From Ktedonobacterales bacterium (GTDB lineage: Bacteria; Chloroflexota; Ktedonobacteria; Ktedonobacterales; JADMIN01): 64,000 nt of DNA. A program made the translations under genes and the position numbers. Location of the stretch: NCBI GenBank assembly GCA_035716045.1, contig DASTKI010000165.1, forward strand, positions 80 through 64,079, given 5' to 3'. The notes beneath the pieces are model-generated. The model was given only the letters and a program-made list of their open reading frames with translations. It was not told the DNA's origin and searched no databases. This document shows, piece after piece, positions 4,641-55,516 of the stretch; the stretch's first letter is position 1, and every line of letters starts with the position of its first letter.

Positions 4641-5291
4641 TCAGCCAGCGCCCTCGGCATCCGCAGTGGCATGTTCCTCAAGCGCTGATCGCAGGAGCGC
4701 GCTCGCCGACCAGCCCATCAGTTCGACCGCCTCCTCACGGGATAGCCCGGCGACATCCGTCAGCCAGACGAGCGCCTCGATCCCTACGGCGCTCCTGATC
4801 GCGAGCGCGAGCCTGTGGAGTTGCGGCTCCGGCAGCCGCCCGCGCAGCGGCGCGAGCGCCTCCTCGATCCAGACGACCGCTCGCCCTGTGCGGAACGGCA
4901 AGTCGGGGCGCGCGGCGCCAGCGCCGTCGTCGGCCTCGTCACGCTCGAGTGAGAGCCGGAGTTGGGCGCGCAGTTCTGGCTCATGCTCGACGATCAGGCG
5001 CCCAAGCGCTTCGACAGCCGCCGCCAGGCGCGCCTCCGGGTCCTGCGACGTGTGCTCCGGCAGGAGCGACGGCGCCGTGACCTGAGGGAACGTCGCAACC
5101 AGCAGCGCGCGCTGGTTCGGGAAATAGCGATACGCGGTCGTGCGCGACACCCCAGCCGCGTCGGCCGCCTGCTCAACCGTTGGCGTCACGCCCTGGGAGA
5201 GCAGCTCGCGCGCGGCCTCGACGAGTGCCCGGCGTGTGCGCGCTTTCTGCTGGACACGCCCAGTGCGCTCATATGGCATTGACATACTCAT
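4641..5291 (-). CDS. TetR family transcriptional regulator
   Basis: The 406-aa ORF 4641..5861 trimmed to MSMSMPYERTGRVQQKARTRRALVEAARELLSQGVTPTVEQAADAAGVSRTTAYRYF (TetR HTH). The upstream part of the ORF is antisense to the cupin gene. Divergent from 5379..5864. Confidence 0.85.
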   Translation of the reverse strand: MSMSMPYERTGRVQQKARTRRALVEAARELLSQGVTPTVEQAADAAGVSRTTAYRYFPNQRALLVATFPQVTAPSLLPEHTSQDPEARLAAAVEALGRLIVEHEPELRAQLRLSLERDEADDGAGAARPDLPFRTGRAVVWIEEALAPLRGRLPEPQLHRLALAIRSAVGIEALVWLTDVAGLSREEAVELMGWSASALLRSALEEHATADAEGAG

Positions 5292-8054: not shown

Positions 8055-9410
8055 TTAGCCCTCCAGCAGCAGCGACTCCGGATCCTCCACCAGCTCCTTG
8101 ATGCGGACCAGGAAGCGTACCGCCTCGTTCCCGTCCACAATGCGGTGGTCGTACGACAGTGCGACGTACATCATCGGATGGACGACCACCTGCCCATTCA
8201 CCGCGACCGGGCGCTCCTGGATCTTGTGCATGCCGAGGATGCCGACCTGCGGCCCGTTCAGGATCGGCGTCGAGAGCAGCGAGCCGAAGACGCCGCCGTT
8301 GGTGATGGTGAACGTGCCGCCGCGAATGTCCTCCAGGCTCAGCTGGTTCTTGCGCGCCTTATCGGCGAAGACCGCGATGCGTCGCTCGATCTCGGCGAAC
8401 GACATCCGGTCCGCGTCGCCCAGCACTGGCACCACCAGCCCCTCCTCCACGCCGACCGCGATACCGATATCGTAATGGCGCTTCAGCACCATCTCATCGC
8501 CCTGGATCTCGGCGTTCAAGCGTGGGAAGGCCTTCAGCGCGCCGATCACCGCCTTGGTGAAGAACGACATGTAGCCCAGGCTCACGCCGTAGCGCTCCTT
8601 GAAGGCGTCGCGCCGTCGCTTGCGCACCTCCATCACCGCTGACATGTCAATCTCATTGAACGTCGTCAGCATCGCCGCCGTATGCTGCGCCTCCACCAGC
8701 CGCCGCGCGATGGTCTGCCGCCGCCGCGACATCCGCACCCGCTCCTCCCGTGGCGCCACCGCCGCAACCGGCGCGCTGACGAGCGGCTGAACGGGAGCTG
8801 GCGCTGGGCGTGCCGCGGGTTGTGGCGCTGGGTGCGGCATGGGCTGCGGCGTGGGCTGGGCAGGCTCAGGCGCCACGGGCGCGGCCTGCGTGGTGGTAGT
8901 AGTAGTGAGCGCCTCATGGCCCGCGAGATACGCCTCGACATCCTCCTGCGTGATCTTGCCTCCCGCGCCGGTCCCGCTGATCGCATGCAGGTCCACATGC
9001 CGCTCGGCGGCGATGCGCCGCGCCACCGGCGTCGCGCGCGCGCCGTTCATCGGCTGCGCCTCCGTGGCCGCCTCCGCGGGGGCTGGGGTCGCCGCTTGAG
9101 GTGGCGCTGCGGTCATCGGGACTGAAGTCGCCGCGGCGCCATCGCGCGTGGCGGACGCCTCGCGCTCCGGCTGGCCCTCGCTCACCCGCGCCAGGACCTC
9201 GCCCACGCCGACCGTCTCACCCTCGCCCTTGACGATGCTGGCGAGCGTCCCATCGCCCGGCGAGGTCACCTCGACATTGACCTTGTCCGTCTCCAGCTCC
9301 ACCAGCGGCTCGCCTGCCGTCACCGCGTCGCCCTCGCCCTTGCGCCATTTGCCCACCGTCGCCTCGACGATGGATTCGCCAAGCTGCGGGACCGTGATCT
9401 CAGTCAACAT
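8055..9410 (-). CDS. sucB: Dihydrolipoamide succinyltransferase (2-oxoglutarate dehydrogenase E2)
   Basis: Trimmed to [22 protein letters not shown]. Lipoyl motif [12 protein letters not shown]3-binding domain [33 protein letters not shown], and catalytic [10 protein letters not shown]. Confidence 0.9.
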
Positions 9411-12300
9411 ATTGTCCCTCGCGTGTCTCCACGCTGGCCGGCCGCTCGCCGCCGAGCGCCTCGCCCATGATTCTCGCCTGCTCCGCCGCGTGCGCATCGG
9501 GCAGGCCCTCCGCCGTGCTCGCTCGCTCGGGCCGGCCCACATAACGCAGCGTTACGCCCGCCGGCAATTGCGCCGCCAGCCGCGGCGCGATATAGTTCCA
9601 CGCCGCCATGTTGCGCGGCTCCTCTTGCAGCCAGACCACCTCGCCCAGATGCGGATAGCGCCGCAGCGTCGCCGCGAGCGCCGCCTCGGGGTATGGGTAC
9701 AGCTGCTCCACCCGCGCCACGGCGACCCACTCGCGCGATTCCGGCTGCCCGGCCATCGCCGCCTCCAGGTCCACCGCCACCTTCCCGCTGCAGAGAATCA
9801 GCCGCCGTACGGCCTCCGGCCGCGCGCGCGCATCATCCAGAACAGGCTGAAACGCCCCTTCAGTCAGGTCGCGCAGGCTCGATCCCGCCTTCGGATGCCG
9901 CAGCAGGCTCTTGGGCGTCATCACGATCAGCGGGCGCGGCGCCACGGCGAGCAGCTTCGCTTGCGCCCGCAGTAGGTGGAAGTACTGCGCCGCCGTCGTG
10001 CAGTTCACCACACGCAGATTGTCCTCAGCCGCCAGCTGCAGATAACGCTCTAGCCGCCCGCTCGAATGCTCCGGCCCCTGTCCCTCGTAGCCATGGGGCA
10101 GCAGCAGAGCAAGTCCTGGTAGCTGCCGCCACTTCGCCCGCGCCGCCGCGATGAATTGATCAATCAGCACCTGCCCGGCATTGGCGAAGTCGCCAAACTG
10201 CGCCTCCCATAGGACCAGCGCGCCTGGCGCGTGGACGCTGTAGCCATACTCGAAGCCCAGCGCCGCCGCCTCCGAGAGCGGGCTATTGTAGATCGCGAAC
10301 GAGGCTCGCGCCTGCGGCAGCGCCTGCAGCGGGATGTAGACCTCGCCCGTCTCGGCATCGTGCAGCGCGTCGTGGCGCTGGCTGAACGTGCCGCGCTCAG
10401 TGTCCTGCCCCGCCAGCCGGATCGGCGTGCCGTCCGCCAGGATCGCCGCGAAGGCCAGCGTCTCGGCAAGGCCCCAGTCAATCCCGCCCGGCTTCTCGAT
10501 CGCCTCGCGCCGTCGCGCCAGCAGCCGCTCCAGCTTGGGATTCGGCGTGAAGCCCTCCGGGCGCGCCAGCAGCGCCTCGTTATAGGCCCGCAGCGCGTCC
10601 GCGGACGCCGCCGTCTCCGCGCTCACCAGCGCGGGCGACTCTTCTAGCGTCGCCTGCTCCTCAGGCACATTCCCCGCCAGCAGCTCGGCGTGCGCCCGCT
10701 TCAACCGCTCCTGCGCCTCGCTCAGCATCGCCTCAGCGTCCTGCGGCGTGGCGACGCCCTCCGCCTCTAATGCCTCCGCGTAGAGCGCCCGCGTGGTCGG
10801 ATGTCCAGCGATGGCGGCGTAAAGGCGCGGCTGCGTGAATGCCGGCTCGTCGCCCTCGTTATGGCCCCAGCGCCGGTAGCCGATCAGATCAACCAGGAAG
10901 TCCTTGTGATAGCGCTGGCGGTAGGCGTGGGCCAGCGCGACCGCGCTGAGGCAGGCCTCGGGATCGTCGGCGTTGACATGGATGATGGGGATCTCGAAGC
11001 CCTTGGCTAGGTCGCTCGCGTAGAGCGTCGAGCGGCCCTGCTCGGCGGCGGTCGTGAAGCCGATCTGGTTGTTGGCGATGATGTGGACGGTTCCACCCGT
11101 CTGATAGCCCGGCAGCCGCGAGAGGTTGAGCGTCTCGGCCACTACCCCCTCGCCGGGGAACGCCGCGTCGCCGTGGATGGTGACGCACAGCGCCTTGTCC
11201 ACGTTCTGCCGCGGCGCGCCGCGCTCGCCGCGCCGCTCCTGCGCCGCCCGCGTGAAGCCCTCCACGACCGGGTTGACGAACTCCAGATGGCTAGGGTTGT
11301 GCGCCAGCGTCAGCGCCACCTGGGCTAGCTCACTCTCGCGCACCGTCCGTCGCGCGCCCAGGTGATACTTCACGTCGCCCGTCCAGCCGTAGTTGATGCC
11401 CGCCGAGCCCTCCGATGGGACCATCTCCTTGTCCGGCGCCGTGTGGAATTCCGAGAAGATCTTCACATACGGCTTGCCCAGGATGTGCGCCAAGACATTC
11501 AGCCGCCCGCGATGCGCCATGCCGATCAGGACCTCGCGCGTCCCGACCTCGGCCGCGTCGTGGATCAGCGCGTCCAGCATCGGGATCAGCGTGTCCGTCC
11601 CTTCGATGGAGAAGCGCTTCTGGCCAACGAATGCGCTGTGCAGGAAGCGTTCGAATGCCTCAACCTCCGCGAGCCGCCGCAGCAATTCGCGCCGCTCGTC
11701 CACCGCCAGCGGCTGGCGGAACACGCCCGATTCGACTGCGTCGTGCAGCCAGCCCCGCTCCTGCTCATCCTGGATGTGGGCGAACTCGTAGCCGAGCGTA
11801 TCGCAGTAGATCGCGCGTAGGCGGTCAATCGCCTCTAGCGCATCGCGCGCGCCGCGCGTATCGCCGCTGGGCCAGACGATGCTCGCGGGCAGCCGCGCCA
11901 GCGCGTCCTCGGTCAGCCCATTCGCTGCCAGGGTGAGCGTCTCTTTCCCTGGCGGCGGCGCACCCAGCGGATCGAGCCGCGCCGCTAGATGCCCGTACTG
12001 CCGGATCATGCGCGCCAGCTTCGCCGCCCCCACGACGACCCGGATCTCCCCATCCGTGACGCCCGCACCCGCCCTGGGCGCGACCGCCACAGGCGCGGCA
12101 GGCGTGGGATACGTGGGTGGCGCGCTCTCCACCGCGACGCTAACACGTGGCGGAGAAGCCGCCCGCTCGAAGAACGCGCGCGTCGTCGCGTCAACTGATG
12201 AGGGGTCTTGCAGGTAGCGCTCGTAGAGCTCCTGCGCATAGCCCGCGTTCGGGCCAAAGAAGGTATCCCAGCCATCCATGGGCGCCAATCCCCATCCCAT
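9400..12300 (-). CDS. sucA: 2-oxoglutarate dehydrogenase E1 component
   Basis: 966 aa. N-terminus [24 protein letters not shown], ThDP-enzyme length and motifs ([21 protein letters not shown]). Overlaps the sucB start by 11 nt. Confidence 0.92.
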
Positions 12301-12666
12301 CCGTCCTCACGCGAGATCGCGCTGTACCATCACGCCGCGCGCCTTCCCGAGCAGGACCATCTTTAACTATACCACCAGCGCCCCATACCGCCTGCCGCTT
12401 CCCTCACAATCGCATAACAAACGGGCGGTATGACTCGGCCTATTTCGCCATCCAGACCGACACCGTCTCTCCACCAGGGCTACCAGGGCGTCACCGCCGC
12501 CACGACCACCATCTACCCGCCCGGAAAAAAGTCAGGACTCGCCTCCTCCGTCAAGCTCACCACCTGAGCCGGAACGATCTACCTGTCACCCATCGTGGCC
12601 AGCGAAAGCAGCCTCTGACTGGCGCCCCGCCCCGTCCGCCACCGCCTTCGTGTCCCAGCCCGCGCA

Positions 12667-12713
12667 GGGGGCTTCGCGGCCGCCAGGCCCTTAGCCACGG
12701 CTTCAGCCGCCCG
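12667..12713 (+). repeat. Family B repeat (gggcttcgcggccgccaggcccttagccacggcttcagccgcccg)
   Basis: Near-identical to the units at 17607-17730. Abuts the stop codon of 12716..15061. Confidence 0.8.
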
Positions 12714-12715
12714 TC

Positions 12716-15061
12716 TCACCACCCAGCCGACAGCGGCGGCGTGATCGTCGCCGCGTCAAGCTCCGCCTGCGTGGGGCGCGCCAGCCCTGGCCCATATTCT
12801 CGCGAGAGCGGCAGGACCACCAGATCGAGGAACAACTCCTTCGCCGTCTCCAGCGTCAGCCCGCCAATCTGTGGCCGCCACCAGCTATGCGTCTCGCGCG
12901 AGACGATCACGCCCGGCGCCACATCCGCCCGCGCGCCCGATGGCAGCGGCGCCACCACCACCGCGCCCTCGCCCGCGACCCAGCTTCCCGGCGCGCAGGT
13001 CGCCCGCGCCGAGAGCGGCTTCCCGCCCGCTCCCTGGAACAGGAAATGGAAGTGATAGAGCGCCACCGCTGGCCCCGGCGGCGCCGAGCGCAGCGCCGCC
13101 CACAGCGTCACCAGCCGCGCCGGCAGCCCGCCGCCCGCTGGCAGGATGAATGCCCGGTCCAGCCGCAGCTCCCCATTCACCACCGCCAGCCCGCTCGCGC
13201 GCGGCCCCTCCGGGTTCGGCGCGACCGCCACTAGTGGATACGTCGCGCCCCGCGCTAGCGCCAGCCTGCCGATCTCGCGCGTCCCCGGCGCGCTCAGCAG
13301 CGCGCGGATCGCCAGCCCCGACCCATCCATCACCAGCGTCGGCGCCGCCCCATCCCCAGCCGGCGGCGTCAGCGCGCAGGCATCCGAGGTATACGCCGTC
13401 CACAGCGGCCCGCCGCCCGCCAGATTGTTTCCCCGCTGCGCCCAGTACAGCCCCATGAAGGGGTCGCCGGGATCGCCCGCCAGGAAAACCTGACGCGCAT
13501 GCAGCGCGACCGCCGCGCGCCCCGTCGCTGCCATCGCTGCCATATAGCTCGTCGTCGGGATTGCCCCCCACGTCGGCGCGGGCGACTCCCCGCTCGCCAG
13601 CGTCAGCGCGAACGCCCCCGTCAGCGCCACCTGCGCCACGATCACCACTCCCGCCACCGCCGCCATCGCCCCACCCGGCGCCGCCCGTCCCAACCTCCCC
13701 AGCCGTCCCAACCGCCCCAACCATGCATGCCATCCCCCCTCTCCTCTCCGGAGAGGGGGCCAGGGGAGGCCCCACACCCACCGCGCCGCCCGCCGCGCCT
13801 GCCCCGGCAGCCCCGCCACAAACGCGCCGACCGCCACATACAGCGGCGGCGTCACCACAAACGCATAGTGGACGTAGATCGGGCTCGCATGCCGCAGCGT
13901 CAGCGCCAGAAACACCGCAGGCGCGCCCACGACCAGCAGCCGCGCCCGCCACACGCGCCACCGCTCCCGCTCGCCTTGGGCCAGTTGAGGCCGCGAGAGA
14001 ATCCCCCAACCCTTCCTCGTCTCTCCCTCTCCCACGGGGAGAGGGGGCCGCCGGGGGGTGAGGTCCCGCAACGGCCGCCCTATCACCATCAGCGCCAGCC
14101 ATCCCAGGCTCAGCGCCACCAGCCCATCGAGCGCCGGCTCCAGCCAGGGCAGCGCCCGCGCCACCGCCGCATACCGCGTATCCGTCCCCAGCCAGTCCCA
14201 TGGTCGCGGCCCTAGCGCCGCGCTGATCTGCTGGACAGCCTGCCCGTCCAGGGCCCGCGGGGTCGCCAGATACGCCAGATAGATCGGCAGGTCATAGCCA
14301 TGGCTGGCCACCTCGAAGAGCGTGGTTGGGATATACAGCGCCAGCGCGCCCGCCACGCCGAGGTAGAAGTCGTACCACGTCACCGCCTCCCAACCCATCG
14401 CCAGACCCACCACGCTCAAAGGCAGTAACGCCGCCGTGATCGGGTGGACCTGGACCGCAGCCGCCATCAGCAGCGCATGGGGGATGAACCAGTGCCGCCG
14501 TCGCTCGACCATCCCCAGATGCAGCGTATAGAGCGCGCCGATGACCAGCGGCAGCACCAGACACTGCTGCCAGATGAACCCGCCCAAGTACGTATCATAG
14601 AGCGCCGTCGCGAACAGCAGCCCGCCCGCCAGCGCCGCCCACCGCCCAAACGCCCGTTCCGTCCAGATATACAGCAGCCCCACCGCCACCACATTCGCCA
14701 TCGCCTGGACCAGCGTCCATCGCTGCGGGTCATTGGCGAAGGGGTACAAGAGCAGCGTGTAGAGCGAAGTGTTCAGCGCCAGCAGCGAGTTATAGATCCC
14801 CGTCCCCGGCAGCAGATGATCGTGCGCCGCCCGCGCCACCTCCAGATACAGCAGCGCGCTATCGCTATAGAACGGCGACCGCCCCAGCCAGGAGAGCCGC
14901 AGGAACGCGCCCACCGCCAGCGTCAGCCAGAACTGCCACTGCCGCGCCCACCCCGGCGTCCGCGCCCCCAGCCATGCCGCCGCGCGCCATCCCCACGCGC
15001 CCCACACCCGCGCCCGCGCCTTCCACGTCACCGCGTCCTTCACCGCCGCCATCGCTTCCAT
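12716..15061 (-). CDS. Polytopic membrane glycosyltransferase (GT39/ArnT-like N-terminal half) with a large extracytoplasmic C-terminal domain
   Basis: 781 aa. The N-terminal half has many TM segments and an early SPFYSDSALLYLEVAR loop typical of PMT_2/ArnT-type GT-C enzymes. It contains two in-frame family A repeat insertions and a GRLGRLGRLGR tract. Confidence 0.65.
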   Translation of the reverse strand: MEAMAAVKDAVTWKARARVWGAWGWRAAAWLGARTPGWARQWQFWLTLAVGAFLRLSWLGRSPFYSDSALLYLEVARAAHDHLLPGTGIYNSLLALNTSLYTLLLYPFANDPQRWTLVQAMANVVAVGLLYIWTERAFGRWAALAGGLLFATALYDTYLGGFIWQQCLVLPLVIGALYTLHLGMVERRRHWFIPHALLMAAAVQVHPITAALLPLSVVGLAMGWEAVTWYDFYLGVAGALALYIPTTLFEVASHGYDLPIYLAYLATPRALDGQAVQQISAALGPRPWDWLGTDTRYAAVARALPWLEPALDGLVALSLGWLALMVIGRPLRDLTPRRPPLPVGEGETRKGWGILSRPQLAQGERERWRVWRARLLVVGAPAVFLALTLRHASPIYVHYAFVVTPPLYVAVGAFVAGLPGQARRAARWVWGLPWPPLRRGEGGWHAWLGRLGRLGRLGRAAPGGAMAAVAGVVIVAQVALTGAFALTLASGESPAPTWGAIPTTSYMAAMAATGRAAVALHARQVFLAGDPGDPFMGLYWAQRGNNLAGGGPLWTAYTSDACALTPPAGDGAAPTLVMDGSGLAIRALLSAPGTREIGRLALARGATYPLVAVAPNPEGPRASGLAVVNGELRLDRAFILPAGGGLPARLVTLWAALRSAPPGPAVALYHFHFLFQGAGGKPLSARATCAPGSWVAGEGAVVVAPLPSGARADVAPGVIVSRETHSWWRPQIGGLTLETAKELFLDLVVLPLSREYGPGLARPTQAELDAATITPPLSAGW
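13734..13775 (+). repeat. Family A repeat, copy 5, in-frame inside CDS 12716..15061
   Basis: cccccctctcctctccggagagggggccaggggaggcccc, translated on the minus strand as ...GLPWPPLRRGEGGWH... Confidence 0.8.
14022..14064 (+). repeat. Family A repeat, copy 6, in-frame inside CDS 12716..15061
   Basis: ctctccctctcccacggggagagggggccgccggggggtgaggtc, translated on the minus strand as ...RDLTPRRPPLPVGEGETRKG... Confidence 0.8.
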
Positions 15062-44803: not shown

Positions 44804-45034
44804 ATGGGCGCACTGCCAGACCGCATCGTCATAGATCCCGCGATCAATCATGGCAAACCCGTCATTCGCGGCCTGCGCTATCCAGTCGAGACATTGCTCG
44901 AACTGTTGAGCGCTGGTATGACGATTGACGACATCCTCGCGGACTATGAAGACCTAGAACGTGAAGATGTGCTTGCCGCGCTGGCCTTCGCCGCGCGCCT
45001 CACACATATCCAACGTATAGAATCCATCGCATGA
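44804..45034 (+). CDS. DUF433-family antitoxin-like protein
   Basis: IDPAINHGKPVIRGLRYPVETLLELLSAGMTIDDILADYEDLEREDVLAALAFA is the canonical DUF433 pattern. Confidence 0.85.
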   Translation: MGALPDRIVIDPAINHGKPVIRGLRYPVETLLELLSAGMTIDDILADYEDLEREDVLAALAFAARLTHIQRIESIA

Positions 45035-45047
45035 TTGGCTCGGTGGC

Positions 45048-45401
45048 ATGAGGTTTCTGGTGGATGCGCAACTGCCTCGCCGGATCGTCTATCGCATGCG
45101 CGAGACGGGCCACGATGCGTTGCATACACTGGACCTGCCGCATGGGAACCGTACGCCTGATGCGGAGATCATCGCGATTGCTTCGCGTGATGATCGTATT
45201 GTCGCAACAAAAGACGCCGACTTCGTGAACTCGTTTGTGCTGCTGCGCCAACCACCCCGCTTGCTCTTGATCTCCACTGGCAACATCAAGAACGCTGATC
45301 TGGAAACACTACTGCTATCACAGATGGCGAACATTGAGGCCGCATTCACCACATGCGATTTCGTCGAGCTGACCCGCCAGGCGCTTGTCCTGCGCGCGTG
45401 A
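45048..45401 (+). CDS. DUF5615-family PIN-like putative toxin
   Basis: MRFLVDAQLPRRIVYRMRETGHDALH...DAEIIAIASRDDRIVATKDADF. Starts 14 nt after the DUF433 gene, the usual two-gene arrangement. Confidence 0.85.
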   Translation: MRFLVDAQLPRRIVYRMRETGHDALHTLDLPHGNRTPDAEIIAIASRDDRIVATKDADFVNSFVLLRQPPRLLLISTGNIKNADLETLLLSQMANIEAAFTTCDFVELTRQALVLRA

Positions 45402-46430: not shown

Positions 46431-47162
46431 CTACTCAGCGGGCAGGCGGGCGCTCTCTTCGAGCAGGCCGCCCTCGCGCAGGTGGGTGATGTCGTTGAGG
46501 GCCATCAGCAGGCGGCGCTCGCCCAGCGCGCGCGCCACCGAGACGCTGGTATTGGCGGCAGGGAAGAAGTAGTCACGGTCGAGGCTGAGGATGCTGGCGA
46601 AGAAGGCGTTGATCGCGCCGCCATGCGAGAAGACCGCCACCCGCTCGCCGGGGTGCGCCGCGTGGATACGCGCCACCGCCGCGTTCACACGCGCCCGTAG
46701 CGCCTCAGATGGCTCGCTGCCCGGGATCACGCTCCACTTGCCCACCTCCACGGCGATGCCAGCGATCTCGCGCAGGCGCTGGCGCAGCAGCTTCGCTACC
46801 GCCGCCGGGTCGGTCAATCCCTCCACCTCGCCGCCGACCGGCCCCAGCTCCACCTCACGCAGATCGTTGTCGAGCTGGACTTCCAGCCCCAACGTATCGG
46901 CCGTCGGGCGGGCAGTCTGCACGGCGCGGCCCGTCGGACTGCTGTAGATCGCCGTGGGCTTGTAGAGCGCCAAGCGCCGCGCCAGCGCCTGGGCTTGACG
47001 TCGTCCCAGGTCGCTCAGCGCCTGCGCGTCATAATCGCCCATCACGATCTCGTCCTGGTCCGGCAGGGCGTCGCCATGCCGCACGAAATAGATCTCCGTC
47101 CCGCCGCTCTTCAGGCCCAGGAATGGGTCGCGCGCCTCGCGCCCGGTCTCGTCAGATGCCAT
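46431..47162 (-). CDS. Histidine phosphatase family protein (PGAM-like)
   Basis: RHG motif EIYFVRHGDALP, plus LSDLGRRQA and a C-terminal SHGG. Confidence 0.8.
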   Translation of the reverse strand: MASDETGREARDPFLGLKSGGTEIYFVRHGDALPDQDEIVMGDYDAQALSDLGRRQAQALARRLALYKPTAIYSSPTGRAVQTARPTADTLGLEVQLDNDLREVELGPVGGEVEGLTDPAAVAKLLRQRLREIAGIAVEVGKWSVIPGSEPSEALRARVNAAVARIHAAHPGERVAVFSHGGAINAFFASILSLDRDYFFPAANTSVSVARALGERRLLMALNDITHLREGGLLEESARLPAE

Positions 47163-48666: not shown

Positions 48667-49281
48667 ATGCTGGACATCACGACCTTTACCCGGACACCCT
48701 TTCACGTGCTCTATCTCGTGCGCCACGGGCAATACCAGCGCGCGTTCTCGCCGCCCGAGACACCCGACGGCCCGCTGACCGAGCTGGGCGCGGCGCAGGC
48801 CGAGCTGACTGGGCGGCGCCTCGCGCGGCTGCCCATCTGCGTCATCCACCACAGCACCCTCATCCGCGCGCGCCAAACAGCCGAGATCATCGCCCAATAC
48901 TTCCCGGATGTCGAGTTACGTCCTTCGCCGTTGCTGCGCGAGTGCCTGCCCACCGTCCCGCCCGCCTACATCCCCTACCTGGAGGGCGCCTCACCCGCCG
49001 ACTTCGCCCAGGGCGACCGCCAGGCGCGCGAGGTCTATCGCAAGTGGTTCAAGCCGCCCGCAGCGGACGCGACCGAATCCACGCGCGAGATCGTCGTCTC
49101 CAGCGGCAACCTCATCAGCTACCTCGTCGCGCGCACGCTCGGCGCCACCGGCAAGCAGTGGGTCGCCACCAGCATTCAGCACTGCGGCGTCACCGAAGTC
49201 GCGCTCGGCGGCCCGCGCAAGACGCTGCTTCTGCGCCACAGCGACACCGGCCACCTGCCCCCCTACCTCCAGACCATCTGA
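48667..49281 (+). CDS. Histidine phosphatase family protein (PGAM-like); its 3' end is the island integration site
   Basis: Trimmed to MLDITTFTRTPFHVLYLVRHGQY (RHG motif), plus LTELGAAQA and HHSTLIRARQTA. Ends ...LLLRHSDTGHLPPYLQTI*. Confidence 0.75.
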   Translation: MLDITTFTRTPFHVLYLVRHGQYQRAFSPPETPDGPLTELGAAQAELTGRRLARLPICVIHHSTLIRARQTAEIIAQYFPDVELRPSPLLRECLPTVPPAYIPYLEGASPADFAQGDRQAREVYRKWFKPPAADATESTREIVVSSGNLISYLVARTLGATGKQWVATSIQHCGVTEVALGGPRKTLLLRHSDTGHLPPYLQTI

Positions 49282-49424
49282 TGGGAGATGCGCTAGCCAT
49301 ACGTCATCCGCAACGCTCCTGCGCGCATGCCTGCTAATTCTTCGTCATAATAGAAATGTCTCATCGCATAACTTGACTCTTTGCAGCGATAAGTTGTAAA
49401 CTTCCAGCGGTATTCTGCTCCCGT

Positions 49425-49453
49425 GTGACAGAGTATGCTCTACTATATATAGT
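49425..49453 (+). promoter_or_regulatory. Candidate sigma-70-type promoter for the island plus-strand gene pair
   Basis: GTGACA (49425-49430), 17-nt spacer, TATAGT (49448-49453), in an AT-rich stretch about 200 nt upstream of ATG 49653. Confidence 0.3.
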
Positions 49454-49652
49454 GCGGCCAGGTTCAGTATGACACCAATTCAATGAGGAGGGAGAATTGA
49501 TGTAGATCGGGCGTCCCCCGCCTCAATGAGCCCGCGTTCACGCTCCCACTCGCAAACGCTCCTGAGGCAGTCCCCGCTGGACAACCTCATGCGCCACCCA
49601 ACGGACAGATGTACGAAACGATACGCCCGCAACAACGAAGGAGGGGCTCATC

Positions 49653-50885
49653 ATGGTCAATAATCCACCACGCGCAGCCCGCGCAGCCCAGCAGCCCGGC
49701 GCTGTAACGATAGGAATCGAATTATCCGCCACACACAAGCGCATCTGCGCCCTACCCGTTGGAGCCGAGCCGAATAAAGACGAGTCCAACATTGAGAAGC
49801 GGCTTAAATTCCTCGACAGTAAAGCTGACCCCTGGGCTTCGCCCCCATTTGCGCCTCTCGGGAGTCTCATTCCCCGGCAAACGACAGAGGTTATCCAGTT
49901 TGTCAACGCCTTTATCAAGACCAGCAATATCAACCCAGATGACGTCACCGGCGTGGGTGTGGCCATCGTCGCCAGCTTCGCACCACACACGGGCATCGCG
50001 AGCGTCACCCGAGCGAGCGATCTCGAGCAGCAACTATCCACCATTTTCAAGAAGGCCACCCGCGTGCGGTGCTTCAACCGGTCCCAAATCTCTTGCTTGC
50101 TGGAGCGCGGCCAAGGAATGGCGGCGGGCCTACGAAATGACGACATGGTCTACATTACTGTCAGCAACAACATCAATCTCGGCGTCATTCAACAGGACGC
50201 GCGCGGCGATGGATGGAATTGGGGCAACGCGGGCGGCATCCCCCATATCCCTTTGACGCAGAACCGGCTCACTGACGTAGCGAGTCGAATGAACCCGCCG
50301 CTCGAATTGGCCCTCCCCAAGGAGGTATGCCCTGTTTGCGGTGAACTGCTCTGCCTGACCAACCTCGCCTCTGGCCGCGCCATCGTCACCGCCGCCCGGC
50401 GCGCGATCTCCGGGGCCACGCCCACGAAGATCATTGACATGATGCGGGCAAGACCGAACTCCGCGCACGCCCAGATCATTCCACCTGATTCGGGTGGAAG
50501 TGTCGCGATTTCTCCAGCCATCCAGGGTGTGACCTCGATAGATACGCGCGCGGTCATCGAAGCAGCGGAAGATCAGGATCCTATCGCGCTCCAGATCATT
50601 CGCCAAGCCGGGCTGGCCCTGGGGCTCGTCATAGCGCTTCGGGTCATTCCGAGCTTCAACCCATTCATCGTTACATTGGGCAGCGCTGGGGCCAGAAGTG
50701 ACACCCTGCTCGATGTGGTCAGACAGGTCGCGGTCAGTGTACAGGGCGGCTTGATCCGACATCCCACCGGCGGCGCGAATGTGGCCGTCAATTTCCTCCC
50801 GACGGCGTTCCCCGGCTATACGGGCCTGCTTGGCGCCGCCTGGTGCATCCAGGCGATGAGCGACGAGGAGATACCCTTGTTCTGA
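49653..50885 (+). CDS. ROK/ASKHA-superfamily protein with degenerate phosphate-binding motifs
   Basis: RBS gaaggagggg. ROK-type zinc motif CPVCGELLCLTNLASGRAI, GNAGGIPHIPL (compare GxAGEIGH) and adenosine-motif-like FIVTLGSAGA. However, phosphate-1 is IGIELSATH (not DxGGT) and phosphate-2 is ITVSNNINLGV (not GTGIGGG). Confidence 0.65.
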   Translation: MVNNPPRAARAAQQPGAVTIGIELSATHKRICALPVGAEPNKDESNIEKRLKFLDSKADPWASPPFAPLGSLIPRQTTEVIQFVNAFIKTSNINPDDVTGVGVAIVASFAPHTGIASVTRASDLEQQLSTIFKKATRVRCFNRSQISCLLERGQGMAAGLRNDDMVYITVSNNINLGVIQQDARGDGWNWGNAGGIPHIPLTQNRLTDVASRMNPPLELALPKEVCPVCGELLCLTNLASGRAIVTAARRAISGATPTKIIDMMRARPNSAHAQIIPPDSGGSVAISPAIQGVTSIDTRAVIEAAEDQDPIALQIIRQAGLALGLVIALRVIPSFNPFIVTLGSAGARSDTLLDVVRQVAVSVQGGLIRHPTGGANVAVNFLPTAFPGYTGLLGAAWCIQAMSDEEIPLF

Positions 50886-50897
50886 TCCGGACGCGCA

Positions 50898-53174
50898 GTG
50901 GCGTGTGAGGGCGAGACGATCGCGGCTCCCGCCGCCGCGCGGCATATCCAGCTTGCCATCCCCTATCGTTTATTGCTAGTGAGCGATTGGTTACAGCGAA
51001 TGACACGATATGCGCTCCTCGCGGCATGCGCTGGCGCTCAGAGCGCGCCATCTGAGCGCCGATTGAGGTTTGCGGAATCTGATATCACCGAACTGCTGCT
51101 GCCATGGTTGCTTGAGGACCCCGCATGGAGAGACGGCGGAGACATAGCCCTGTGCGGAGTGAGCGCGCCAACGACGGCGACAAGTGGCGTCAGGCAGATC
51201 GCTGATCGCCATTTCCTCGCCGAATTGAAGCGAATCGTGTCGCACGCGGAGGATGACGACTTCGTTCTCATCTACTTCTCTGGACACGCAGTCTTGCGCG
51301 AGATCCGCGGCGTTGAGAAGACCTGCCTGGAGTTTCCATCCACTTGGGTCCCGATTGATGAGGTTCGCAACACCTGTCGAGAGAATATGCGCGGCGCCGC
51401 TATCCTCTTAACGCTTGATTGCTGTTATCCCATATCCGGCGATGCAGAGCCGGAGAAATCCCGTCTCTCCAGGATCATATCCGCATTGGGCTCACTCATT
51501 CAGGAAGCGGACATCGAGAGAGCCAATAGCCACCACTCAGGTTCGCTCGTATATATTGGCGCCTGTTTGCCTGGCCAGGAGTCCTTCGAATCGAATCGCG
51601 AGCAAAGCGGCTACTTTCTGAGCGCGTTCATCAGAGGTTGCGACGGAGGCGGCGAGTCACTTCCCTCCGTGGATGGCGGTGTGGTGACAACCGGCAGTCT
51701 CATCCAGTTCATTCAATGTGACCTGAGAGGCTGGCAGATTCCCGTCGCGTACAGCGCAGACCCATTGGGACTTCGACTGAAGGAGCTCAGCGCGTGGCAA
51801 GGGCCACGACACGACTGGAACGGGCCATCACATCCAATCATGCTGAACAGCGAGCGGTGCAGCAGACTCGGGCGGAAACTGATGGCGCGTTCGGAATTCG
51901 TGGTCAAGTCCAGTGCGCAGCCAAAGTGGTCCACCAGTCAGTTTCTCAGCACGCGTGACCTGTTTGTGCAAAGCTGCGCATCTGTTTTACCCCCATTGGG
52001 CGCCCGGCTAACGTTGGAGGTAGGCTTCACCAATCAGACGCTCACGTTCGTTGAACAGTGTCCCGCGCATCTCAATCCTGTGGAAGCGGAAAAAGGCCCA
52101 CGCTATCTCGTCGAGAGCAAGCCGCCAGTAGTCATGGCGGAGGGCGCATACAACATCTCGCTCACGGAGCACAAGAATCATGGCCATAATGAACAACTCT
52201 TGGTTCTGTCCCAACATACACCGCAACCAACCCTGTATGTGTATCGCGGCTTGAAGACAACCTTGGCTATTGATGATCGCGCCCCACGAAAGCTGGGACC
52301 AGGCACGAGTTCCGCGCTCCATCCGGCGTCTGGCAGAGTATTCGCCCTCGATTCGGGGGGCGCCCTCACCGTGTGGCCACTCGAACAGTCAGAACGAGCC
52401 GCGCCTGTCTCGTGGGCAGGGCATCAAGCGTCGTGGATGGCGCTGAGCGAAAATGCGTTTGCGGTGGCGGCGGACGGTGATTCCGTGTATTTTTGGAGAC
52501 TGAACTCGGCCTGGACACAGGAAATCGGTTTGCGCGCTCTCCCCCAGGCGCCCCAGGGCTTGGGACGGATCCAGGCTCTTGCCGCAAAGTCGGAAAAGGC
52601 CGTCAATTCCTGGGCGCCTGGAACTCATGTCGCCGCCGGATTTGGCTTTGGAGCCGTCTCGCAAGGAGCGCTACTCCTGTGGAACACCGAGCCAGGGTCA
52701 AACACACAATTCAGCCCACCGCAACTCGTTGCGACTGAACACCATTCAGTTGACGCCATCGCGTTTTCGGATGATGGCGGGCGGCTGGCCTTTGCCGCGG
52801 GCCCCATCGTGCGCGTGAAACAGCGAGCCAAAACAGGAGATTACGGAAGACGACAAGTCGTGCTGGACATATCAGACTATATAAAGACTCCGCCACCGCC
52901 AGCCGGCGCGCCCCAATTAGCGATAACTCGTCTCGCATTCTCGCCGAGGATATTTGCGGGATCCGTGCTGGCGATTGGAACGAATTATGGTGATGTGCTG
53001 CTGTGGGAATATCGAAGGCACAGACCCCCTGTATCGCTACCCAGCGACCGCGCCCTCGTTCAGGACCTCTCGATAGAGGCATGGAACCGTTATGAGGCGC
53101 GCCTCATCGTGAGAGGCGCCAAGAGCGTGGAAGTCTGGGCGCTGGCCACGCAGAGAGTAGCACGTGTACGATAA
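50898..53174 (+). CDS. Caspase-like (peptidase C14) protease fused to a WD40-like beta-propeller
   Basis: His-Cys dyad contexts FVLIYFSGHA (His codon 51285-51287) and AAILLTLDCCYPISG (Cys codons 51420-51425). p10-like SGYFLSAFIRGCDGG...DGGVVTTGSLIQFIQ. The C-terminus has at least 5 repeats ending in aromatic-W (LTVWPL, VYFWRL, LLLWNT, VLLWEY, VEVWAL). The start is either GTG 50898 or ATG 51000 (MTRYALL). Confidence 0.75.
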   Translation: MACEGETIAAPAAARHIQLAIPYRLLLVSDWLQRMTRYALLAACAGAQSAPSERRLRFAESDITELLLPWLLEDPAWRDGGDIALCGVSAPTTATSGVRQIADRHFLAELKRIVSHAEDDDFVLIYFSGHAVLREIRGVEKTCLEFPSTWVPIDEVRNTCRENMRGAAILLTLDCCYPISGDAEPEKSRLSRIISALGSLIQEADIERANSHHSGSLVYIGACLPGQESFESNREQSGYFLSAFIRGCDGGGESLPSVDGGVVTTGSLIQFIQCDLRGWQIPVAYSADPLGLRLKELSAWQGPRHDWNGPSHPIMLNSERCSRLGRKLMARSEFVVKSSAQPKWSTSQFLSTRDLFVQSCASVLPPLGARLTLEVGFTNQTLTFVEQCPAHLNPVEAEKGPRYLVESKPPVVMAEGAYNISLTEHKNHGHNEQLLVLSQHTPQPTLYVYRGLKTTLAIDDRAPRKLGPGTSSALHPASGRVFALDSGGALTVWPLEQSERAAPVSWAGHQASWMALSENAFAVAADGDSVYFWRLNSAWTQEIGLRALPQAPQGLGRIQALAAKSEKAVNSWAPGTHVAAGFGFGAVSQGALLLWNTEPGSNTQFSPPQLVATEHHSVDAIAFSDDGGRLAFAAGPIVRVKQRAKTGDYGRRQVVLDISDYIKTPPPPAGAPQLAITRLAFSPRIFAGSVLAIGTNYGDVLLWEYRRHRPPVSLPSDRALVQDLSIEAWNRYEARLIVRGAKSVEVWALATQRVARVR

Positions 53175-53236
53175 GCGCTGGCCGTAGGCATCCGCCTAGA
53201 CGAGCCTCGCGGAGGCCCATGCTGATGTGTTGGCGG

Positions 53237-53749
53237 CTACCGCAGGAGGGCCACAAACAACTGCAGCGCTGCGATAACCAGCGAAGCCAGAGAAACGATG
53301 ATACCGAACTTCGCTATGCGCAGCGAAGTTCGTTCCGCTTCCGCATCCCGTTTCTCCAGGTTCACCTCCTGCTTGATCACGAAGAGCTGAATCACGACCG
53401 GATCTGATTGGGCTGGCTCCTTGGTTATTGTTCCATGCGGGTGACGCTCAGCCAGCTTCGCATTGATGTAGTTGGCGATTGTGTCGCTGTCATCGAAAAC
53501 CTTCCCGACCGATTTCTTTGTCGCATCGCCAAGCAGGAGGTTGTCCACAGGCTCGCTGGTCTGGTCGCTCAGCCTTTTCAAGTGCTCATCAATGACGCTG
53601 GCTCGGGCCTTGAGAGATCCTCGGAAATATCGTGCGACAAGAAAAGCGATCGCCGAGACCGTTAAGGAGATGAGGAATAGATACACGGAAAGAAGCTGCG
53701 AAGACAACATATACCCCCCGCCAAGACTCTTGGTTAGCTGGATAATCAT
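53237..53749 (-). CDS. Hypothetical 2-TM membrane protein (terminal TM helices flanking a charged soluble segment)
   Basis: TM1 LLSVYLFLISLTVSAIAFLVA and TM2 FGIIVSLASLVIAALQLFVALL. AT-rich island codon usage. Alternative start at ATG 53710. Confidence 0.5.
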   Translation of the reverse strand: MIIQLTKSLGGGYMLSSQLLSVYLFLISLTVSAIAFLVARYFRGSLKARASVIDEHLKRLSDQTSEPVDNLLLGDATKKSVGKVFDDSDTIANYINAKLAERHPHGTITKEPAQSDPVVIQLFVIKQEVNLEKRDAEAERTSLRIAKFGIIVSLASLVIAALQLFVALLR

Positions 53750-53886
53750 TGCACGCCAGGAATCAATAATGGCGTGCAGAAGTACAAACCAAAGCGATAT
53801 TTCAACGAGGTAATCGCGTCATGGATCTTCTCCGCGAGCCACACGTCTCGCGCGTACCTCACCACATATCTACCGGTTTGCTGAAT

Positions 53887-54306
53887 TCACCTTTCTGTAG
53901 AATTATTGGTATGCCCCACGACCACATCGAGCGCGCCCTGCTCATCAAGCCAGAGCCCGATTACGCTCTCATGTGTGCCCAGCGACACAACCTGCTGAAC
54001 GCAGCGGCGAATTTGAGCAAGATGCTCCGCCTTAGTCGCTGGATTGGCTGAACATGGAGCATGCCCGACAACCGCAACAACTCGTGAGCGATGTGACTTA
54101 GCGCTCTCTTGAAGGCAGGTCTTGACCATAATCCACTCGGGGCTTACTTCTTCTGCGCTGAGTCTCTTGTCTGGTCCAAAGAGAGAGATATTGTCTACAT
54201 AGTCTGCATTGTATTGTTTTCGCATCCAGGTGGAGACTGGTTCCTGCACAAAGCCATCAGAGCAGTTGATCACTGCGACAAATCGTTCTGTTCCCACTGC
54301 GTACAA
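53887..54306 (-). CDS. Hypothetical small protein with CSD...HxxC motif pair (possible beta-carbonic-anhydrase-like zinc site; speculative)
   Basis: 139 aa. VAVINCSDGF and VVGHAPCSA lie about 67 residues apart, reminiscent of the beta-CA CxDxR...HxxC pattern but lacking the Arg. Start is TTG 54306 or GTG 54297. Confidence 0.45.
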   Translation of the reverse strand: MYAVGTERFVAVINCSDGFVQEPVSTWMRKQYNADYVDNISLFGPDKRLSAEEVSPEWIMVKTCLQESAKSHRSRVVAVVGHAPCSANPATKAEHLAQIRRCVQQVVSLGTHESVIGLWLDEQGALDVVVGHTNNSTER

Positions 54307-54360
54307 CTTTCCACTATACAGAGTGCGCGATACGCCAGCAGCGCAAGAATGACAAGAAAG

Positions 54361-54369
54361 AATATAGCA
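54361..54369 (-). promoter_or_regulatory. Candidate extended -10 element (TGcTATATT) for the island minus-strand gene pair
   Basis: Plus-strand aatatagca reverse-complements to tgctatatt, about 55 nt upstream of the ORF start. Confidence 0.3.
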
Positions 54370-54405
54370 TACAGTATTTGAAAGCGCCAGCGCTATGGCA
54401 GGTTA

Positions 54406-54457
54406 TTCTACGTCACAGCGATACTGGCCATCTGCCCCCTACCTCCAGACCATCTGA
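54406..54457 (+). pseudogene. Displaced, frameshifted copy of the histidine-phosphatase 3' end (attR-like)
   Basis: Aligned base by base to 49229-49281: 5 substitutions, all at third codon positions and all G/C to A/T, plus a 1-nt deletion in the C6 tract. The last 27 nt are otherwise identical through the TGA. Confidence 0.8.
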
Positions 54458-54509
54458 GCCGCAAGCCCTTGACGGCTGCTGTGGTCGGTGGCCAGGCGCA
54501 GACCTCATC

Positions 54510-54540
54510 CCCTCGCCTCTCTGCTTGAGAGGCGAGGGGG
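54510..54540. terminator. Perfect 13-bp stem / 5-nt loop hairpin (family A-related), candidate bidirectional terminator
   Basis: cccctcgcctctc tgctt gagaggcgagggg. Lies between the phosphatase 3' remnant and the convergent cupredoxin gene. No U-tract. Confidence 0.5.
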
Positions 54541-54610: not shown

Positions 54611-55051
54611 TCACTTGACCGTGATGCTCATACGCATGCCCGCCTCGTAGTGTCCAGCCTTATGGCAGGCGAACTCGAGCGTTCCCGCTGCGGCCGCCTG
54701 GGTGAATGTGTAGACCCCCGTCTTCAATTGCCCAGGATTCACATCCTCGATTTCGAAGAGGCGCGCCGCGTCTATCTCTTCCTCGGACGCTTGGCCGGTG
54801 GAACTGGGTACCGCCATCAACTCATGCTGCGTCTGACCGCTATTGGTCACGACAAAGCGATAAGGGACCCCAACGGTAAACTCGGTCTGTGACGCTTTAA
54901 TGGCGAAATCAGTGAGAGTGATCTGGACCTCAGTAGCTTGCTTTGTGGGGCTGGGAGCGCCTGAGCTCGGAGTGGTTGTGGTCGCGCCACATGCCGCGAC
55001 AGCAAGCAAGATGAGGAACAGACTACTCGTGAGCAGGAGACGCGCTTTCAT
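54611..55051 (-). CDS. Cupredoxin-like (type-1 copper) lipoprotein
   Basis: Trimmed to MKARLLLTSSLFLILLAVAACG (lipobox). C-terminal copper ligand motif EFACHKAGHYEAGM. RBS ggaggtg. Confidence 0.75.
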   Translation of the reverse strand: MKARLLLTSSLFLILLAVAACGATTTTPSSGAPSPTKQATEVQITLTDFAIKASQTEFTVGVPYRFVVTNSGQTQHELMAVPSSTGQASEEEIDAARLFEIEDVNPGQLKTGVYTFTQAAAAGTLEFACHKAGHYEAGMRMSITVK

Positions 55052-55516
55052 CGTAGCACCTCCGAAAGGCGAAAGGCCGAGAGGAGACATCGCCCCCCCA
55101 GCGTGGTGTCCCACAAAGGCCCCTGATGGGCCAGACGCGGGTAGAGTTGACCTCGACATAGTCCGTTCATCGCGCAGGGAGCTACGGCGGCTCCCTTGAA
55201 GTGACGTAATGGAGCTGGTCACAATATGGCGCCATCGCTCCATAAAGGGGATGCTCGTTGCAGCCGAAGCGCGGCACAGGCGCGCTCGCTCGCAAACAAG
55301 CAGTCTGTACTGCTCACGGACTGGAAATCAGGGACTGCAAATAGTAGCGCCAGAGCGGCATTCGCACGCAGGCGCTGTGCCAAGTGATGCGCAGATAGCG
55401 GGAGCCAGAAATGCGCGGCGCGATTGCGCCAGGACACACTTCTGACTCCCGATTGGTGACGCGCGAGGCTGGCGATCTGGCCAGCGCCAGCGCCATATAG
55501 AGTCTCCAGCGCATCC

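Follow-up and report, generated by a model that had tools for sequence, protein, structure and literature searches.

The stretch of DNA analyzed here, a window of 64,000 nt from a 65.6-kb contig of a Ktedonobacterales metagenome-assembled genome (MAG), carries at the 3′ end of a histidine phosphatase gene a compact islet of low GC content, and the central feature of this islet is a pair of genes encoding a ROK-like protein and, downstream of it, a caspase/beta-propeller protein (NCBI HEU0027820.1 / VFQ25_11950). There are four intact open reading frames (ORFs) in the islet, arranged as two convergent pairs, all other ORFs being overlapping shadow ORFs; the second pair encodes a small protein of the Pro_CA_2 family and an orphan protein with two transmembrane (TM) helices. 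An earlier sequence-only reading of this DNA had described the same arrangement and proposed that all four genes make up one undescribed conflict system. Our analysis points to a smaller unit, the ROK-like gene and the caspase gene, which recur together in other loci. The coordinates of the features, with protein lengths in amino acids (aa), are collected in Table 1.

A ROK-like gene lies immediately upstream of the caspase gene, on the same strand and 56–296 nt away, in 8/8 distinct loci inspected. These are the loci for which upstream DNA was available, namely (by our contig labels) L001/L002, L007/L021, L008, L009–L011, L019 and L020, together with JGI 3300047160 and the window itself. The partners in L001 and L007 pass the Pfam ROK cut-off, and those in L008 and L009, which fall just below it (~20 bits), align throughout with the other ROK-like partners. 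A partner-family hidden Markov model (HMM) detects all ROK-like partners and nothing in L012–L018, seven loci with generic caspases that came from scans of genome and metagenome contigs with the family alignment and served as negative controls. The pairwise identities fall in parallel (54, 31, 24 and 22% for the ROK-like protein; 45, 23, 24 and 22% for the caspase), a pattern to be expected if the two genes were inherited together, and we regard a strictly linked two-gene regulator–protease module as very likely. The sequence-only reading had not recognized this pairing from any described defense system; the neighborhood survey establishes it as real and recurrent, and neither our literature searches nor the PADLOC models searched contain a ROK–caspase association. 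The four-gene module, however, did not survive the survey: because homologs of the Pro_CA_2 gene (the “Cys/His” gene of that reading) and of the 2-TM gene never adjoin the pair in any other locus inspected, the conserved unit comprises two genes rather than four.

Table 1. Features of the islet and its surroundings in the window, and the genes that accompany the caspase gene in other loci
Feature	Coordinates	Strand	Evidence and remarks
Histidine phosphatase gene, insertion target	48667..49281	+	His_Phos_1, Pfam PF00300, E 1.6e-20
Left repeat (attL-like)	49230-49281	+	Last 17 phosphatase codons, host-like third positions
Islet	49282-54434		5153 nt
AT-rich non-coding leader	49282..49652	.	GC ~0.43-0.57; 5′ of the ROK-like gene
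ROK-family protein, probable pseudokinase, 410 aa	49653..50885	+	Pfam PF00480, 60.9 bits (cut-off 22.9), E 1.9e-16
Caspase (C14)/linker/7-bladed beta-propeller protein, 724 aa	51000..53174	+	HMMER, Pfam, NCBIfam, AlphaFold2 (AF2), Foldseek
Caspase domain, ~aa 1-262	51000-51785	+	
His96 codon	51285-51287	+	
Cys142 codon	51423-51425	+	
Disordered linker, aa 264-337		+	
Propeller, ~aa 385-720	52152-53159	+	
Orphan 2-TM protein, 170 aa	53237..53749	-	Hydrophobic helices aa 20-38 and 150-168; charged helical middle
Pro_CA_2 (beta-carbonic-anhydrase-like) protein, 139 aa	53887..54306	-	Pfam PF20393, E 1.8e-33
Right repeat (attR-like)	54406-54457	+	Frameshifted remains of the 3′ end of a lower-GC phosphatase gene, then the 23-nt exact core
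Perfect 13-14-bp GC-rich hairpin	54508-54540	.	RNAfold -30.7 kcal/mol; arms 54509-54521 and 54527-54539
ROK-like gene upstream in L001/L002			462 aa
ROK-like gene upstream in L007 and L021			451/465 aa
ROK-like gene upstream in L008			374 aa
ROK-like gene upstream in L009-L011			384 aa
ROK-like gene upstream in JGI 3300047160			363 aa
ROK-like gene upstream in L019 and L020			Present
Small multi-TM neighbors of the pair	Window 53237-53749; L007 5049-5525; L008 1712-2188		
CopI-like cupredoxin gene	54611-55243	-	Just outside the right repeat
Second histidine phosphatase gene	46431-47162	-	His_Phos_1, E 2e-38
Small low-GC patch	44804-45401		GC 0.56-0.58
76-aa ORF	44804-45034		
DUF5615/PIN-like (Mut7-C) toxin-type ORF	45048-45401		Pfam E 2e-25

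The caspase belongs to a small family. An exhaustive HMMER search of 1.84 billion representative proteins, using a profile made from the window protein and one close relative, returned only 10 proteins below E 1e-10. The window protein matches P0006, P0007, P0008 and others at E 4e-49 to 2e-11, and the relatives are 632–707 aa long (P0010 is a 315-aa partial), with WD40/beta-propeller matches in all but P0010. The Pfam Peptidase_C14 gathering threshold is passed by P0006, P0007, P0008, P0010, P0011, P0012 and P0013 (21.4–40.5 bits), whereas PF00656 (Peptidase C14) gives no match to the window protein at E ≤ 0.1; membership of the window protein in C14 is thus transitive, being established through its relatives. 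A sub-threshold match to the PADLOC “caspase” model was also seen (E 1e-3). In word-indexed homolog searches the caspase had a single relative, as did the ROK-like protein, and the 2-TM protein had none; a direct sequence search of the PDB with the caspase protein produced spurious nanobody matches alone, which we discarded.

In a nine-sequence alignment, G95-H96 and D140-x-C142 are invariant, so that the His/Cys dyad is conserved in all nine family members, as the sequence-only reading had proposed to check. That reading had numbered its residues on a 758-aa product starting from GTG 50898; its catalytic H130 is indeed the invariant His, but the invariant Cys is C176 in that numbering (C142 of the 724-aa protein) and not C175. 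The longer product, with a gap of 12 nt to the ROK-like gene, also gives way to a shorter one: ATG 51000 is the NCBI call and all homologs begin at the same position, which makes it probably the true start and the gap 114 nt. The AF2 model of the protein has a mean predicted local distance difference test (pLDDT) score of 66.5, and its N-terminal domain reaches 80–93 and follows the alternating strand–helix order of the caspase fold, with strands E88–95 and E134–142 (pLDDT 80–93) preceding the His and the Cys. Foldseek retrieves only seven-bladed WD40 propellers (target TM-scores up to 0.66), the search with the whole model being dominated by the propeller and hence without independent fold evidence for the caspase domain. 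Profiles, alignment, AF2 and, for the propeller, Foldseek together uphold the earlier assignment of a C14 caspase-fold protease with a His/Cys dyad joined to a beta-propeller. No TM helix is present in the protein. The S1 pocket of metacaspases is the basis for reading the Asp of a D-x-C motif as a determinant of Arg/Lys specificity at P1. The invariant Asp140 suggests such a specificity here, as in metacaspases and orthocaspases (PMC5756287). The disordered linker contains a basic motif, LGRKLMA, that is conserved with the closest homolog and could, speculatively, be a site of auto-processing.

The ROK-like partner keeps the zinc site of its family and has lost the kinase motifs, in agreement with its earlier description as degenerate. 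A partner-family profile finds 2qm1 glucokinase in the PDB at E 1.6e-11, and also 1z05, 3eo3 and 2aa4. Throughout the partner family the zinc ligands H198, C226, C229 and C234 do not vary, and they line up with the corresponding motif of 1z05 and 3eo3, with a His-to-Cys spacer of 27 residues (9 in 1z05) and with CxxC where those have CxC. The functional meaning of the ROK motifs is known from established structural work on the family. An invariant Arg stands in place of the catalytic Asp (N142-R143), the motif NDAN having become NR(S/T)Q (NRSQ in the window); the glycine-rich phosphate-2 loop GTGVGGG reads SxNINLG (SNNINLG in the window); the sugar-binding motif GE(V/L)GH reads GG(I/L)PH (GGIPH in the window), with Gly for Glu; the Glu expected after the third zinc Cys has given way to Thr or a different residue; and the phosphate-1 motif (DxGxT/D-x-G-G-T) is degenerate, appearing as IELSAT (E23). 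As all members of the partner family have kept these substitutions, they suggest a specialized non-catalytic protein and not a decaying gene. Pfam detects no helix–turn–helix (HTH) or winged-helix DNA-binding domain, and the ROK match begins after ~17 non-HTH residues. Judged by its motifs the protein is a probable pseudokinase, and we read it as a non-catalytic, constant subunit that acts as a sensor or regulator.

The pair resides in DNA that differs in composition from its host. The islet has a GC content of 0.573, the minimum of all 5153-nt windows in the 64 kb (median 0.671), with local values of 0.50–0.63 from ~49.3 to 54.4 kb against 0.68–0.71 in the flanks. Tetranucleotide distance is also maximal there (37–47 vs 14–30 in the rest of the window), and the GC content at third codon positions (GC3) of the four islet genes is 0.51–0.71, compared with 0.83–0.89 for neighboring host genes. 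The low-GC island that the sequence-only reading placed at the phosphatase 3′ end is therefore confirmed by the GC minimum, by GC3 and by the sliding GC and tetranucleotide comparison that it had suggested, in which both deviations peak over 49.3–54.4 kb; composition and the flanking repeat also agree with its view of a horizontally acquired segment, and we consider an acquired genomic islet highly likely. Two details of that reading need correction. GC content does not recover after ~54460 but persists at ~0.59–0.60 to ~55.4 kb and is host-like only at ~55.4–55.9 kb, since the cupredoxin gene, which lies outside the repeat, also has a low GC3 (0.64). Nor do hexamer counts single out a promoter-like region for each gene pair: the leader contains three sigma-70-like hexamer pairs (49373–49497), which is not above chance (1.9 ± 1.6 in shuffles), and the search gave no such hexamers for the two genes on the minus strand. 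An Rfam scan of the islet, leader included, gave no credible match. Given the foreign-like GC3 of the cupredoxin gene, the insertion site may have received more than one acquisition. We also observed, ~4 kb upstream of the islet, the small low-GC patch listed in Table 1, where the toxin-type ORF is preceded by the 76-aa ORF in what looks like a toxin–antitoxin-like pair.

How the islet came to lie at this position is suggested by its borders. The phosphatase gene encodes 204 aa from ATG 48667, its product is identical to that of the called gene on Logan contig L015, and the left junction restores the 3′ end of the gene. The direct repeat of the last phosphatase codons noted in the sequence-only reading does bound the block, as copies of 52/51 nt that agree at 47 positions and differ by 5 mismatches and a 1-nt deletion; it includes a 23-nt exact core, with which the phosphatase gene ends (49259–49281 = 54435–54457) and which has two copies only in the window and 0 expected in shuffles. 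All five mismatches are synonymous third-position changes from G/C to A/T in the right copy, with the peptide L-R-H-S-D-T-G-H-L kept, and for this reason the right copy is best seen as a remnant of a lower-GC phosphatase coding sequence that was brought by the islet. A chance repeat within a native low-GC region was considered and rejected, given the shuffle expectation of zero and the synonymous nature of every mismatch. We infer that the attachment site of the islet mimics the 3′ end of its target gene and that crossover would fall within the 23-nt core. The hairpin lies between the right repeat and the stop codon of the convergent cupredoxin gene, and probably served as a terminator for both the cupredoxin and the phosphatase gene until the insertion displaced it from the latter. 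A second histidine phosphatase gene occurs ~1.5 kb upstream of the targeted one, with an APH-family kinase gene between the two.

Elsewhere, too, the pair occurs in DNA of deviating composition, and minimal low-GC islets contain it in three compositionally distinct genomes (the window, L021 and L009). In L021 the pair sits in a sharply bounded islet of ~4.7 kb (8300–13000; GC ~0.44 vs 0.62–0.70 in the flanks) that has no convincing flanking repeat and also encodes a 158-aa 3-TM protein, with a weak, sub-threshold PADLOC match to PycTM (E 3e-4), and a 54-aa 1-TM protein. The L009 pair has a GC content of 0.29–0.43 compared with ~0.47 around it and is bracketed by a 20-nt direct repeat (19/20) at 8526–8545 and 12674–12693, 4148 nt apart. 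Between the caspase stop codon and the right-hand copy (12087–12628) there are, in addition, two long-repeat pairs (141 nt at 93% and 114 nt at 80%) with ~290 nt spacing. The closest homologous pair, that of L001, lies between fragments of an IS630-like transposase (1–339 and 4842–5132). The upstream fragment there is a DDE_3 C-terminus and the downstream one an HTH_38/HTH_29 N-terminus, both on the same strand, an arrangement that resembles a composite transposon. Taken together, these contexts fit an accessory, laterally moving module.

The explanation that we favor as a whole, and hold to be on balance probable, is an integrase-less islet carrying an operon of a ROK pseudokinase and a caspase-propeller protein. 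Site-specific recombination at the final codons of the histidine phosphatase gene would have brought the islet in, together with a phosphatase 3′ end of its own that came from a lower-GC host. By analogy with the EACC1-caspase systems discussed below, the ROK pseudokinase as the 5′ partner would restrain the caspase or activate it upon a cue, and the propeller might recruit a target or assist sensing. The protease could then process itself in the linker or cut targets in the cell, and the outcome could be growth arrest, cell death or signaling. That the module serves in conflict is a tentative proposition drawn from the same analogy, to which we would give somewhat less than an even chance. 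A bolder formulation, possible but doubtful in our estimation, is that the pair is an undescribed, self-contained, mobile two-gene system for regulated cell death or action against invaders in filamentous Chloroflexota, descended from the EACC1-caspase lineage through replacement of the membrane sensor by a cytoplasmic one of ASKHA fold, and traveling as a 4–5-kb integrase-less islet, often with an unrelated small multi-TM protein as a possible effector.

Several observations weigh against this explanation. Among the features of integrative islands that move by a tyrosine or serine recombinase, direct repeats at a gene 3′ end and foreign composition are present and an internal integrase is not, the ORF list and the Pfam searches of the four proteins revealing no integrase, recombinase or transposase gene, as the sequence-only reading had also stated. 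The empty junction would be expected to read CACCTGCCCCCCTACCTCCAGACCATCTGA joined directly to GCCGCAAGCCC, and the diagnostic 29-mer across it was not found in JGI metagenome contigs; in L015, the sole other contig with the phosphatase gene that we found, the site is occupied, as it is in other contigs of the same sample series. With neither an integrase nor an empty site found, the insertion mechanism is argued from two things, the repeat and the composition. The AF2 model of the ROK-like protein, built on a two-sequence alignment, has a pLDDT of 34 and so does not constitute a structure, which leaves the loss of nucleotide or ligand binding to be judged from sequence motifs; the window caspase lies below the Pfam C14 and NCBIfam cut-offs and owes its assignment to its relatives; and a beta-propeller is not an obvious effector. 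For the defense interpretation in particular, PADLOC has no significant match for any of the four islet proteins, there are no PHROG, phage, plasmid or viral-contig matches, and no known defense gene is adjacent to the pair, the sole defense-type genes in L021 (DndH/HerA-like and HTH-M78) being 8–9 kb away. Outside the islet, L009–L011 and L021 are flanked by housekeeping genes (secG, PDH, metH, isocitrate/isopropylmalate dehydrogenase and D-Ala-D-Ala carboxypeptidase). The conflict or defense role put forward by the sequence-only reading is accordingly unconfirmed by database matches and by these mixed neighborhoods, and stands as an argument by analogy.

The same housekeeping flanks and the same lack of defense-model matches would suit a laterally mobile module for regulated proteolysis in the physiology of its own host, such as development, sporulation or stress signaling in filamentous Ktedonobacteria, and WD40 orthocaspases are widespread in multicellular bacteria with a role that is unknown (PMC5756287). 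We nevertheless find this rather unlikely, as the family is very rare and patchy (~10 clusters among the representative proteins searched), the pair lies in low-GC islets of three genomes and is flanked by insertion sequence (IS) fragments in L001, and its nearest caspases are of the EACC1 type, which are predicted conflict systems. A toxin–antitoxin-like (TA-like) relationship, with the ROK-like protein as a stoichiometric inhibitor or preferred substrate of a toxic caspase and addiction stabilizing the islet, would account for the order of upstream inhibitor and downstream toxin, the strict linkage, the mobility and the catalytically dead partner, and the DUF5615/PIN-like TA-like module is only 4 kb away. 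A zinc-containing ASKHA protein of 360–465 aa is, however, far larger than typical antitoxins, the intergenic gaps give no sign of translational coupling, and the partner has no DNA-binding domain for autoregulation; we thus consider this very improbable.

There is also the original proposal of one conflict system formed by all four genes, in which sensing and proteolysis would fall to the caspase-WD40 protein, with an accessory role for the ROK-like protein, an effector role at the membrane for the 2-TM protein and the Cys/His protein as a fourth component. All four share the islet and its foreign composition, and small multi-TM proteins, mutually dissimilar, also adjoin the pair in L007/L021 (158 aa) and L008 (158 aa). 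Against it, besides the lack of homologs of either gene beside the pair in other loci, both genes are convergent to the pair and have lower GC3 (0.51 and 0.66 vs 0.63–0.71), the 2-TM protein is an ORFan for which a search of 5.8 billion proteins returned nothing but its own 99% copy, and the Cys/His protein belongs to an independent Pfam family. The latter matches Pro_CA_2, annotated in Pfam as a putative carbonic anhydrase, with 115.9 bits (cut-off 30) over profile positions 3–124 of 125 (122/125), and has Cys15 and His82-x2-Cys85, which we take to be the arrangement of beta-carbonic anhydrases; it is not found on plasmids, phages or viral contigs. The small Cys/His protein seen by the sequence-only reading is present, as a member of PF20393 and, in our reading, not as a conserved part of the system. 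The 2-TM protein has a weak, sub-threshold match to Pfam 8xMP (E 0.016) and no PADLOC match, and literature searches on PF20393 and 8xMP returned nothing relevant. A four-gene system seems improbable to us, and we read the Pro_CA_2 and 2-TM genes as co-transferred passengers, although the 2-TM protein could be an effector. Non-homologous multi-TM proteins of 158–170 aa stand beside the pair in 3/5 contexts with visible flanks, and BLASTP detects no homology among the small TM proteins of different loci; they may represent a recurring, sequence-unrelated membrane partner, or a coincidence.

The two-gene module that we favor bears on a wider subject, as sensor-coupled caspase-family proteases are a recurring link between bacterial immunity and eukaryotic cell death, and most predicted bacterial caspase systems, those of the EACC1 type included, still await experiment. 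The pair would add a class of partner to them, a zinc-containing sugar-kinase fold that has lost catalysis and is linked to the protease across 22–54% identity; if our interpretation is correct, this would be the first ROK-fold protein recruited to trigger or regulate a caspase. With no more than two soluble proteins involved, the hypothesis is a simple one that lends itself to testing. The presence of the same module in compact, integrase-less islets of three compositionally different genomes also makes the means by which islets this small are transferred a question of interest.

Comparison with known systems places the two proteins near, and outside, several described groups. With the ROK family (PF00480), which includes GlcK, NanK, the kinase domain of GNE and the Mlc/NagC repressors, the upstream protein shares the ASKHA fold and the zinc motif of one His and three Cys. 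Unlike Mlc/NagC, it has no N-terminal winged-helix domain and is not a repressor of that kind, and unlike the sugar kinases it has lost the catalytic Asp, the Glu of ExGH, the Glu C-terminal to the zinc motif and the phosphate loops, so that by its motifs it is not a kinase. Bacterial gasdermin systems and type IV Thoeris also have a caspase-family protease, activated by a partner, that is controlled by the product of a neighboring gene, or acts on it, as a death switch. The islet has no gasdermin, TIR or CARD-like gene, and its ROK-like protein, with the catalytic residues lost, is not a plausible source of a nucleotide signal. Orthocaspases with C-terminal WD40 domains, found for example in Gloeobacter and other cyanobacteria (PMC5756287), resemble the window protein in their p20-type domain, His/Cys dyad, D-x-C motif, lack of a canonical p10 and C-terminal WD40 propeller. 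The described orthocaspases are, however, stand-alone genes, whereas here a ROK-like neighbor is obligatory, and the present clade is only marginally matched by Pfam C14, the window protein not at all.

The closest likeness is to the EACC1-caspase system, System 4 of Kaur, Burroughs, Iyer and Aravind (2020, eLife; PMC7159879), which was predicted computationally. In that study, a 5′ constant component with a single TM helix is proposed to sense a signal and activate an N-terminal caspase, and the activated 3′ product then deploys variable C-terminal domains. The corresponding NCBIfam model, caspase_w_EACC1 (NF047832), scores the window caspase at 29.3 bits (E 5e-7), short of its cut-off of 140 bits, yet it is the best NCBIfam match of 7/9 family caspases at E ≤ 0.001 (best E 1.6e-20), which indicates a related clade rather than membership in the EACC1-caspase group. 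A genuine EACC1 and caspase pair on a low-GC metagenome contig (L016, 282–2255) contains the best-scoring caspase outside the family, its nearest outgroup, and served as a positive control, since its upstream gene matches EACC1 (PF19953) with 26.5 bits (cut-off 23.6). None of the islet proteins contains an EACC1 domain, and the upstream gene is ROK-like in all eight loci. Like EACC1-caspase, the module consists of two genes in an operon, the 5′ one encoding a constant partner and the 3′ one an N-terminal caspase, and it occurs in multicellular or filamentous bacteria. The C-terminal domains of EACC1-caspase 3′ genes are variable and include superstructure-forming repeats, whereas here the C-terminus is always the same beta-propeller, not a diversifying effector set. 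The 5′ partner differs as well, being a soluble ROK-fold pseudokinase of 360–465 aa in place of an EACC1 domain of ~100 aa with a single TM helix, and as neither component of the pair has a TM helix the module would be cytoplasmic. We therefore read it as a variant of the predicted EACC1-caspase conflict system in which the membrane partner has been replaced by a cytoplasmic ROK pseudokinase.

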